Shown in pieces: positions 6,001-9,000 of a stretch of 64,000 nt of DNA (positions are counted from its first letter, which is position 1; each line of letters starts with the position of its first letter). A program made the position numbers. The stretch is taken from assembly GCF_003018115.1 (NCBI RefSeq), contig NZ_CP027457.1, one strand, 5' to 3'. The DNA is from Escherichia coli (GTDB taxonomy: Bacteria > Pseudomonadota > Gammaproteobacteria > Enterobacterales > Enterobacteriaceae).

Positions 6001-9000
6001 GCAGGTCAAACGCCTCGTTAGCGCCCCTGCCCGGTTTTCGCCATTTTCCGTCACTGCCGCGCTCTTCATAGGTCAGCTCATCGTAAAACCACCGCCCCAG
6101 CCAGTCGGGAAAGTGGATATAGTTCGGCCCTGGTGTGTCACGCCACAGGGCATTATTTACACGGTCCTTAAACGCATCCGTCTGAACCAGCCACAGCGCG
6201 ACATCGCCACTGGCTCTGGCACGGCGGGCACTTCTGCCGGTATTATCCGGGAAGGTACGGTTAATCAGCCTGTCACGGCGAAGACCATCCCCCTTGAACA
6301 GAAACACCCTGTTGCCCAGTCCGTCACTCCGGCAACGACGCCAGAAACGATAGGCGTTATCTGTCACCCCGGCTTCCCCTCCCGTATCCACCGCCATGGC
6401 CATCAGACGCATGCGCACATCCGGATCAGAAGCCAGCGGCCATGTTTTATGGAACACATCCGTCAGCAACAAATCCCAGTCCTCCGGATATGCCGCCGGA
6501 TCAACCGGCAGACTTTCACCGTTGGGACTGCAGCGCAGTGAATGCCGGATGTTGTAGCGATCAACAATCCAGCGTTCCCCCTGCTCTCCGTATCCGGTGA
6601 TCTGCACAACAAAACGGCGATTTTTACCGCCCTGTACGTCAACCGTTGCCTCAATAAAACGCACACCATCCGGCACAGATCGCCGGGGAAACGGCTCGGC
6701 ACGCTGTTCAAGCAGTTCACTTTTACGCTGTTCCGTGGCTGAACGGGGCAGATAGGGTCGTCCGATATCGGTGTTCACCACCGCTTTCAGGGTCTCTTCA
6801 CTGCCGGTTCGCTCATACTCTTCTTCTGCCGCCAGCAGCTTAAAAATCAGTTGTTCCCAGGTCTGAAACGCCGCAGCCGGCCCCTCCATCCAGAAACTTG
6901 CTATTCTGGAATTTCGAGGGGTCCCGGTGATACTGCCATCCGCCGCTGCCCGTTCGCCTTCCCGCAGCCAGATCCCCTGGTTATTCAGTTCACGCTTCTG
7001 TTCCGGAGCAATCAGGCCGCGGCAGTGCGGACACATCAGGCGGGCCGCCTGCCCGGCAGCCACAAAATCAGGGTTATTCCGGTAACCGGTCATGTTATCC
7101 ATCACCGGCTGAAAATATTCCCCGCAGTGCGGACACGGCCAGTACCACCGGCGGCGGTCTCCCCGGTTATACAGTGACAGGATCCCCGTTGTTGGCGGTG
7201 CCTCATGTGCGCCACCACAACGCCATTTGGTATCGGTGATATCCCGCCCGGGCGAACTTTCGACCAGGGTCATCCCCGAGGACATAAAGGTGGTGGTACG
7301 CTTTGAGGCCAGCGTGAAGGCATCCCCTTCACCGTCGACATTCTCAGGAAAACGGTCATAATCCGTCAGCGCCACACGACGGTAATCCGAAGAGGAAAAT
7401 ACGGTGATCGACGGCCAGCCAATTTTCAGGAATGAGCCGTCAAGAAACATTTTATCGTGGACGTTGTTGTCATTACGGGAAGGACTGAGGCGCTTGCTGA
7501 CCTCCGGACTGTGGCGAAACGTCCTGGAAAGACGCGTTCTGGAATGCTCACGCGCCTTCGTCTCAGTCATCTGCACCACCAGCATATCCGCCGGATCACA
7601 GATGATGCCGTACACAATCCAGCCGTCAATCAGCCCTTCGGTTTTCCCGGTTCGCGCAGGTCCCACAAACACCACCGCGTCATATTCACGGGCTGATAAT
7701 GTATTAATGGGGTCAATCATATAGGGCGTCAGTGATGACTCCCACGGACCGGAAGTATTGGCTCCCCGTGGTACCCGCATATAACGCCTGATGGCTTCCG
7801 CTACTGGTAACCGGCTGGGTGGGCGAAACAGCGAGGCCACTTCGCGCCAGATATCGGATGCGCGGCTATGGCTCTCGTTCACCTGATTCACATATCGGCC
7901 TCATCACAACAGTCAATGACTGCCTTTTCCAGTGTGTCGCGGATCTCATCAACCACAATCTGTACTTCATTCAGTTGTGATGCGGTCCACCCCCTGTCCC
8001 TCTCCAGCCGGTCAGGCCAGGTTTCCAGTACCTGAACTATCGCTTTCACCACGACAGAAAAGGACCGCCTGACATCACTGACTGGCACAAGCTGAACAGT
8101 TTCATGCTGAAATTTAAGACGCTCGCGCTCGGACTGATACCATGCCTTCCGATCATGTGGGTTCATCTCTTCATCTTCGGAAGCCGGTGGTTTTTCCAGC
8201 AACGAAATAATCAAATCCGTCAGGAGATACAGTTTTTTCTTTTCATTACTGCCTGGTGCAAGAGGAACATCCGCCATTCTGGCGGCAACAGTCTGCCGGT
8301 GCAGACCTGAAAGGGCTGCCAGTTGATTAATATTTAACTTCATATTTTTCAGCTCGCCGTCCATTCACATCCCTCCACATAAACCGCTGAACAAAAGTGG
8401 CTCTTTTTTTTGTAAAGAAATGCCGCCATATAAAGATGTCGAACAAAAATCAACCACAACCATCATCTTTTTAATGCTAAACACATTAAAAACAACAAGT
8501 TACACTAATGATGATGATGACGATAAAATCACAAAAATGCGCCTTTTTCCGCGCCGCCCGCCCCGTGTTCAGGCCCACCCCACCAGGAGGACCCGCAAAA
8601 TGATAATGGTTATCATTTGTAATGTAGTCCGGTTTCTTCCACCATCGCACCGGACCAGCGACTATGAGGGGACAACGCCGCGCTCCGTTAACGCGGTAAA
8701 CCCCGGTGTGTATCGTTTTTGATTATCCCCGCACACTCGCGCAGAGGAGTCTCCCGGTCGGGCTGCGGTCTCTGTTAATGCAGGAATACGGCGACGATAC
8801 GGCGCATAGTTATGTCAGGCTGAAATGCCTTTATCAAATCCGGGTAACGCAATCTGCCCCTGCTGCTCCAGCCTGTCCAGCCTTGCCAGCAACTGAGGCT
8901 TCTTCACCCTGCCCCAGCGATTGAGCAAGCGACCTGACATACTGGCGACATCTTTCTCTTTCATGTATTCCAGCATGACTGCATTTCTCTCAGCTTCCAG

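Follow-up and report, generated by a model that had tools for sequence, protein, structure and literature searches.

The gap ahead of the terminase genes

We examined a 64,000-nucleotide stretch of Escherichia coli DNA (NCBI RefSeq assembly GCF_003018115.1, contig NZ_CP027457.1), here called the window, meaning that whole stretch at its full length, and within it the 450-bp intergenic gap that precedes the terminase genes of a lambdoid prophage. A segment of this gap, 8600-8432 on the minus strand, is very probably the lambda-like cos (cohesive-end) site of a Stx2-converting lambdoid prophage, judging from the order of its subsites, their homology to lambda cos, the families of the adjacent terminase proteins, and its conservation in relatives and in a satellite-like island. 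The prophage type comes from the PGAP annotation of the RM10809-3 chromosome (L015), which is 100% identical to window positions 7000-9600. There, stx2 (the A subunit and a Stx2c-type B subunit) lies about 7.4 kb upstream of the cos, after three tRNA genes. The minus strand carries every gene around the gap:

9541-10014, minus strand: Rz lysis gene
8815-9429, minus strand: antirepressor-like Rha/ORF11CD3 regulator, the upstream neighbour, outside the cos (Pfam Phage_pRha, 7.6e-30; ORF11CD3, 1e-23; PHROG 518)
8365-8814: intergenic gap, 450 bp, between the Rha and DUF1441 open reading frames (ORFs)
7888-8364, minus strand: small terminase subunit (TerS), 158 aa, Pfam family DUF1441
5768-7891, minus strand: large terminase subunit (TerL), 707 aa, lambda gpA family (Pfam GpA_ATPase, 1.8e-81; GpA_nuclease, 6.2e-84)
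between the TerL and portal genes, downstream of TerL, minus strand: head-tail adaptor, 78 aa
4057-5559, minus strand: portal, lambda family, given for context (Pfam Phage_portal_2, 1.6e-80)

The original prediction had described the gap as an AT-rich region with a GC-rich, lambda-like motif and had proposed it as the likely packaging site. Its limits were exact, with the DUF1441 ORF on one side and the Rha ORF on the other. The AT richness holds for 8365-8548, whose GC content of 0.337 compares with 0.509 for the whole window and falls within the lowest 0.66% of 184-bp windows, but not for 8565-8814 (0.556). The motif GGGGCGGGCGGCGCGG is indeed present, and only once in the window, but its orientation has to be corrected: it reads on the minus strand, at 8564-8549, the plus strand being ccgcgccgcccgcccc. 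As for packaging, a lambda-type cosQ, cosN and putative cosB do follow one another in the right order, orientation and spacing, but they take up only about 170 bp (8600-8432) of the 450. Like cos in lambda, the gap has the lysis cassette on one side and the head genes on the other, and a TerL of the gpA family is encoded just downstream of the site.

Predicted subsites of the probable cos and the small terminase

The features that we distinguish in the gap are given below in the direction of the terminase genes, with plus-signed positions counted from the predicted top-strand nick toward TerS and slashes marking predicted nicks.

8620-8814, minus strand: noncoding spacer outside the cos, about 190 bp (conserved part 8620-8807), common to many lambdoid phages with unrelated terminases
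8597-8619, minus strand: palindrome CAAATGATAACCATTATCATTTT adjoining cosQ, an inverted repeat of 9+9 nt, 100% complementary, homologous to lambda 48452-48472
8594-8588, minus strand: cosQ heptamer GGGTCCT, by homology a packaging-termination signal, 24 nt upstream of the predicted nick
8550-8565, minus strand: predicted cosN, CG/GGGCGGGCGGCG/CG, with a 12-nt 5' overhang (8563-8552) favoured and a 10-nt one (8563-8554) as the alternative
8521-8551, minus strand: spacer CGGAAAAAGGCGCATTTTTGTGATTTTATCG between cosN and R3, at the position of the I2 segment of lambda
8520-8507 (+44 to +57), minus strand: R3-like block TCATCATCATCATT, (CAT)4, putatively bound by TerS, at the position of lambda R3
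8502-8490 (+62 to +74), minus strand: I1-like, IHF-like site TAACTTGTTGTTT, one mismatch to YAANNNNTTGATW
8470-8459 (+94 to +105), minus strand: R2-like inverted repeat AAAGATGATGGT, which differs from the inverted R3 core by one mismatch
8443-8433 (+121 to +131), minus strand: R1-like degenerate direct copy TTCGACATCTT (Fels-1 counterpart TTCATCATCTT at +118)

The clearest homology lies around cosQ. When the two ends of the lambda record were joined and aligned with the gap, window positions 8616-8588 matched lambda 48452-48480 at 26 of 29 positions, with a score of 43 against a mean of 20 and a maximum of 36 in 200 shuffles; the resemblance of the gap to lambda is not due to chance. The heptamer at the end of this match is identical to cosQ of lambda, which we take to occupy 48473-48479. 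The Feiss papers describe cosQ as a highly conserved site of 7 bp, and it is invariant among lambda-like phages (PMC4669245). GGGTCCT occurs once on the two strands of the 64 kb, where dinucleotide-preserving shuffles give 4.75 +/- 2.15 copies and never fewer than one. This rarity could reflect chance or the avoidance of additional cosQ copies. The palindrome next to cosQ is missing from the satellite-like island of E. coli Nissle that is described below, and hence it is probably dispensable for packaging. The same palindrome fits 15 of the 19 positions of the Fur-box consensus GATAATGATAATCATTATC, and there are three such matches on the two strands of the window.

Beyond cosQ, the junction ACG/GGGCGG aligns with ACG/GGGCGGCGACCT of lambda and also with the phages LLS and cdtI. 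The left half of cosN, GGGCGG, and both flanking CG dinucleotides are identical to lambda, whereas the right half differs at five of its six positions (overhang positions 7-10 and 12; GCGGCG in the window, CGACCT in lambda). Ten of the 16 positions are self-complementary, as many as in lambda. Among lambda-like phages, the left half of the 12-nt overhang and the CG dinucleotides flanking both nicks are conserved, positions 7-12 vary, and 10 of 16 bp of lambda cosN show two-fold symmetry (PMC4669245, PMC9026076). The composite pattern GGGTCCT-N19-23-CGGGGCGG has a single occurrence in the window, and 300 shuffles of the whole window also produced just one. A copy of the motif with two mismatches, CGGGCGGGCGGCGTGG at 44893-44908 on the minus strand, was considered as a second cos and rejected as a chance match: it has neither cosQ nor cosB and lies within a chromosomal ORF of 1169 aa on the plus strand (42501-46010). 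Only one column of the spacer from cosN to R3 varies when the window is compared with O157, 2017.17.03CC and the Nissle island, by a G/A difference in the Nissle island, and the motif CGCGGRWWWNSGC within it is common to all relatives with DUF1441- or Nu1-type TerS.

The AT-rich stretch that follows, 8551-8433 (about 34% GC), has the layout of a cosB, in which the (CAT)4 block takes the position used for R3 in lambda (PMC9026076). The succession of R3-like block, IHF-like site, inverted R2-like copy and R1-like copy is common to the window, Fels-1 and O157 alleles, and these elements hold their positions across lineages. Shuffled sequences yield an IHF-like site at that place and orientation in 2.6% of cases and a comparable inverted copy in 5%. 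The elements are individually weak by this measure; their weight comes from conservation. Of the ten DUF1441-type cos regions examined, nine have an IHF-like site in the same orientation at +59 to +64, and in three of them (cdtI, mEp460_4F5 and L030) the site is perfect. The R3-like block and the inverted copy are clear and conserved; the latter is perfect in Fels-1 and L022 and largely maintained in relatives and in the Nissle island, with 11 of 12 columns invariant. The R1-like block is invariant and is the last conserved block in the Nissle island. An alignment of the window with an O157 allele, a further allele that is more distant, and the Nissle island shows the cosB blocks to be largely unchanged, most of the variable columns lying in the intervals that separate them.

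The gene next to the site had been called a small terminase subunit. PHROG matches and fold bear this out, but its Pfam family is DUF1441, so that a likeness to Nu1 of lambda needed showing. The window protein matches PHROG 141, "terminase small subunit" (8e-65), and PHROG 57 (5e-10); lambda Nu1 gives the reciprocal pattern (PHROG 57, 1e-76; PHROG 141, 6e-8). A search of DUF1441 against PDB sequences with phmmer gave zero matches. In the AlphaFold model, residues 1-60 (pLDDT 85) show the order strand-helix-helix-wing-strand-helix, a predicted winged helix-turn-helix that best fits the TerS DNA-binding domains 6hn7_B and 7lxs_A. Given the reciprocal PHROG matches, an hhalign alignment colinear over 138 columns, and the model of the N-terminal domain, we treat DUF1441 as a Nu1-type TerS. 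Its ATG lies at +200 from the predicted nick (+191 in lambda), with a GGAGG 8 nt upstream.

The block at +44 changes together with the N-terminal domain of TerS, reading CATCAT, CACCATCACCACC, CATCACCACTAC or GGCGGCGGC. A telling case is a class of IMG/VR contigs (L030, L068 and L118) in which the C-terminal half of TerS is identical to that of the window, the N-terminal helix-turn-helix domain is different, and the +44 block is CACCATCACCACC. This is the pattern expected if the N-terminal domain reads that block, and we regard the class as a natural domain swap that alters the predicted packaging specificity.

These elements suggest how the site could work during lytic growth. The DUF1441 TerS would use its Nu1-like winged helix-turn-helix to bind the R repeats of cosB, which are of the (CAT)n type, and bending of the DNA at the IHF-like site, which separates R3 from the inverted R2, would probably assist. 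It would then anchor the gpA-type TerL on cosN, where staggered nicks in CG/GGGCGGGCGGCG/CG would most likely leave the 12-nt 5' overhang GGGCGGGCGGCG or, alternatively, the 10-nt overhang GGGCGGGCGG. The left end of the virion DNA is thus predicted at 8563, running toward the terminase genes. Translocation in that direction would proceed to the next cos on the concatemer, where cosQ (8594-8588) and cosN would trigger the terminating cut.

This picture could have practical consequences. It would place the ends of the mature Stx2-phage chromosome, with the predicted left end at 8563 and the stx2 genes then about 7.4 kb from the right end, and it could help to annotate the approximately 400 complete E. 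coli genomes with the site, to interpret induced-lysate sequencing, and to judge cross-packaging among prophages. The DUF1441 family would be assigned the function of a Nu1-type small terminase, and (CAT)n would be its candidate recognition sequence. The site is unannotated in the public records examined, yet it is of a very well-known type, and the lambda-like picture of packaging is unchanged. The points of modest interest are the shortened, polymorphic cosN, the (CAT)n repeats of the DUF1441 terminases, and the presence of a copy of the cos in a widespread satellite-like island.

Conservation in phages and in a satellite-like island

The whole gap is 94-99% identical in several records of Stx2 phages and in VT1-Sakai (Sp15), none of which carries an annotation over it. 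The cos part is found at a coverage of at least 80% in 400 of 5426 complete E. coli genomes, and several genomes and phage records have every one of its subsites intact and unaltered. More distantly, a DUF1441 homologue occupies the TerS position in cdtI, LLS, mEp213, mEp460, Fels-1, Gifsy-2, the Hafnia phage yong2 and the cyanophage Cr-LKS3. The records of cdtI and LLS start exactly at the G homologous to 8563, the depositor of LLS having marked a "5' extended single-strand cohesive site GGGCGGCGCGCT", and the yong2 record starts directly after the corresponding 12-mer. A literature search found no publication on yong2, and in the Ayreon and LLS papers the ends are predictions only. The ends of the mEp460_4F5 record were not used as physical ends: they are approximate, since this record begins 4 nt ahead of the predicted nick, and its cosN is three nucleotides shorter than that of mEp460.

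A pattern scan of viral contigs for ACGGGGCGG followed by CGCGG gave 120 loci, corresponding to 91 distinct cos regions. Nearly all of the latter have GGGTCCT at a distance of 22-24 nt ahead of the nick. Whether the TerS gene that follows is of the Nu1 or the DUF1441 type, the cosQ-cosN core is the same and the TerS ATG falls between about +130 and +240, while a 3-nt-periodic block at about +44 to +57 differs by TerS subtype (CATCATCATCAT, CACCATCACCACC, CATCACCACTAC or GGCGGCGGCAGC).

The window shares with lambda the order and orientation of the site relative to TerS and TerL, the cosQ heptamer, GGGCGG, the CG flanks, the symmetry of 10 of 16 positions, a block at the R3 position, an inverted second repeat, and a gpA-family TerL; its IHF-like site resembles those of lambda, TAACTTAATGTTTTTATTT and TAACTTAATGTTTTT. 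Lambda differs in the overhang's right half, in having 23 nt instead of 24 from cosQ to the nick, in its R repeats, which are of the CGTTTCC type instead of (CAT)n, in a less compact cosB (R2 to R1 is about 25 bp in the window), and in a TerS of Pfam family Phage_Nu1, related to DUF1441 at the profile or fold level only. The phages cdtI, mEp213/LLS, mEp460 and Fels-1, each with a putative cos, are closer: they share the TerS family (36-58% identity), cosQ, the ACG/GGGCGG junction, the motif CGCGGRAAA, an R3 block with 3-nt periodicity (+44 to +47) and, near +60, an IHF-like site. Fels-1 also has CATCAT repeats arranged as R3, inverted R2 and R1. In these phages CGCGG comes after 12 nt and cosQ is 22 nt away from the nick; the corresponding figures for the window clade are 10 and 24 nt, and its R3 block is preceded by 2 additional nt. 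The closest comparison is VT1-Sakai/Sp15 of O157:H7, with 94% identity over the whole gap, a TerS 96.8% identical and all subsites in common; it differs by one extra G in cosN (GGGCGGGCGGGCGCGG), by Rz instead of Rha upstream, and by stx1 instead of stx2. Cr-LKS3 has a distant host and genome. It shares a DUF1441-like TerS (33% identity), a gpA-like TerL and reported 5' cohesive ends whose first four nucleotides and flanking dinucleotides are as in lambda, and differs in its 9-nt overhang, GGGCTCGCG.

The limits of the site can also be seen in E. coli Nissle (NZ_CP148105.1, 1690000-1712000; L141), which has a 169-bp match to the window at about 91% identity, between ssb and capsid genes. It belongs to an island of about 11 kb (L141, approximately 6400-17200) at tRNA-Pro/yejM that encodes an integrase, an Icd-like protein, a D5-type primase, an SSB, a capsid protein of the lambda E type, a decoration protein, and an Rpp-like protein of the Nu1 family with no N-terminal match. 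The similarity starts at cosQ and ends right after the R1-like block. An island that does not itself encode a terminase of this kind has kept exactly the segment from cosQ to R1, which supports both the function of the segment as a cos and its boundaries at approximately 8600-8432. The junction of ssb and cos in the island occurs in 160 of the 5426 complete genomes, Nissle 1917 among them. Three cos-like sites were found in it (L141 coordinates), one of which is the window-type copy from cosQ to R1:

10180-10134, minus strand: cos-like site, the window-type copy
7740-7695, minus strand: cos-like site
6801-6847, plus strand: cos-like site

The two others have the lambda overhang GGGCGGCGACCT and different types of cosB, and one of them stands directly upstream of the Rpp-like gene. 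From these sequences, islands of the Nissle type may collect cos modules for several helper terminases. Satellites of Gram-negative bacteria belonging to the PICIs (phage-inducible chromosomal islands), such as EcCICFT073 with its cos1, cos2 and Rpp system, have a cosQ-cosN core like that of their helper phages (PMC6739421). The cos1 of EcCICFT073 has an Rpp-specific cosB and not that of a phage, whereas the window site is a phage's own cos beside its terminase genes. As EcCICFT073 was described with two cos sites and no capsid genes, the Nissle island is related to it but is not the same.

Overhang length and alternative readings

Several observations weigh against a cos with the properties proposed here. 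In the window clade only 10 nt precede CGCGG, and 11 in the close O157 alleles. Within cosB, the IHF-like site has its one mismatch, some such site is present in 33% of shuffles, and the R1-like block has three mismatches to the R3 core. The hhalign comparison of DUF1441 (12 sequences) with Nu1 (6 sequences) reaches only P 57% and E 1e-4. The ends given for LLS are the authors' own inference, backed by reads that stop around the cos; we found no measured virion ends for the E. coli DUF1441 lineage in the accessible literature, and those of the window are predicted from sequence. Finally, PGAP flags as frameshifted or interrupted the protease/capsid fusion, a tail gene and gpJ of RM10809-3 (L015 25534-27511, 29244-29993 and 36084-39757).

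The first of these points concerns the overhang. Of 124 surveyed sites, 118 have 12 nt between ACG/ and CGCGG. In the window, in L138 and in Nissle this interval is 10 nt (GGGCGGGCGG or GGGCGGGAGG), O157 Sp15-type alleles and 2017.17.03CC carry 11, and the other surveyed lineages 12. Close relatives whose cosB is identical differ by one base in the length of cosN (the window compared with the O157:H7 alleles L136, L137 and L002 and with L139). The window clade also has 35 nt instead of 33 from CGCGG to the (CAT)n block and 24 nt instead of 22-23 from cosQ to the nick. These lengths make the size of the overhang or the register of the nicks uncertain. CGCG contains CG twice in tandem, so that CG flanks would result from a nick ahead of CGCGG (10 nt) and equally from one after its first CG (12 nt). 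We lean toward a 12-nt overhang, GGGCGGGCGGCG, given the symmetry of 10 of 16 positions and the fact that R3 then stands 33 nt from the bottom nick, the spacing of Fels-1 and L071.

A lambda-type cos with another register is a possible, though less probable, reading: a 10-nt 5' overhang GGGCGGGCGG (11 nt in the O157 Sp15 type), which would be the favoured variant, or a shifted top nick giving CGGGGCGGGCGG. In its favour, the majority of sites have a 12-mer directly before CGCGG where the window has only 10 nt, and the distance from cosQ to CGCGG (34) is in the window the same as in that 12-nt majority; the length of the overhang does vary in the lineage, being 9 nt in Cr-LKS3. What favours the 12-nt reading is that it retains the ACG/ junction, the CG flanks and the full symmetry, which drops to 8 of 14 positions with 10 nt and 8 of 16 with the shifted nick, along with the Fels-1-like spacing to the (CAT)n block. 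With 10 nt in the window and 11 in the O157 alleles, a one-base difference between the two is expected, either in the length of the overhang or in the register of the nicks.

A broader proposal, which we put forward tentatively, is that the overhang of the window clade is noncanonical and polymorphic (10 or 12 nt, and one base longer in the O157 Sp15 type), that satellites gather cos modules for several helpers, and that Stx phages with a DUF1441 terminase are natural helpers, mobilising such satellites without redirection of the Rpp type. If the overhang is polymorphic in this way, ends that do not match would be expected on genomes that arise by recombination or cross-packaging between these prophages.

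The state of RM10809-3 raises a different possibility. Frameshifts in capsid and tail genes mean that the prophage may not make its own particles, and the site could be an intact-looking relic in a defective prophage, unused by its own phage and at most cut by the terminase of a co-resident helper. Sp15 of Sakai, too, has been described as defective in head formation (PMC2669165). We consider this unlikely: in the window the genes for TerS, TerL and portal are open and the capsid/protease fusion is a continuous ORF of 723 aa (2088-4259), every subsite of the cos is intact and unchanged among several genomes and phage records, and Sp15 DNA is packaged all the same, having been reported in DNase-resistant particles after induction (PMC2669165). 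Moreover, a defect in the phage would leave the identity of the site unchanged.

It is highly improbable that the AT-rich region is mainly a promoter or regulatory region of the terminase operon, with an incidental GC-rich motif and headful packaging from a pac elsewhere; promoters are frequent in AT-rich intergenic DNA ahead of operons and there is a terminator-like hairpin at 8384-8400, on the plus strand, but a promoter scan found no sigma-70-like site on the minus strand of 8200-9600, TerL belongs to the cos-cutting gpA family, the order cosQ, cosN, cosB fits lambda base for base at key positions, and a satellite without the downstream terminase operon retains the block. A headful (pac) site is itself ruled out by the gpA-family TerL and the presence of cosQ and cosN. 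We also rejected a cos of the HK97 type, with 3' overhangs and dependence on an HNH protein: TerL is of the gpA family, no HNH gene lies beside the terminase genes, whose neighbours are Rha and DUF1441, and the HNH-bearing relative that has the spacer, vB_EcoS-569R3, loses similarity before cosN.

The part of the gap upstream of the cos has a distribution of its own. The spacer 8620-8814 recurs at 91-97% identity in phages that include Stx1a phages, BP-4795 and vB_EcoS-569R3, in which the similarity ends before cosN, and it is missing from the cos copy of the Nissle island. From these alignments, 8620-8807 looks like a mosaic junction. The RNA fold of 8617-8814 is no better than that of shuffles on either strand (z = -0.54 and +1.08), the ORFs inside the gap have zero Pfam matches, and an Rfam scan of 7500-10000 at E<=1 gave zero matches. 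The DUF3950 gene of one relative falls outside the segment that it has in common with the gap. At the other side of the gap, the plus-strand hairpin is followed by a T-run, is antisense to the terminase leader, and stands just upstream of the DUF1441 start codon.

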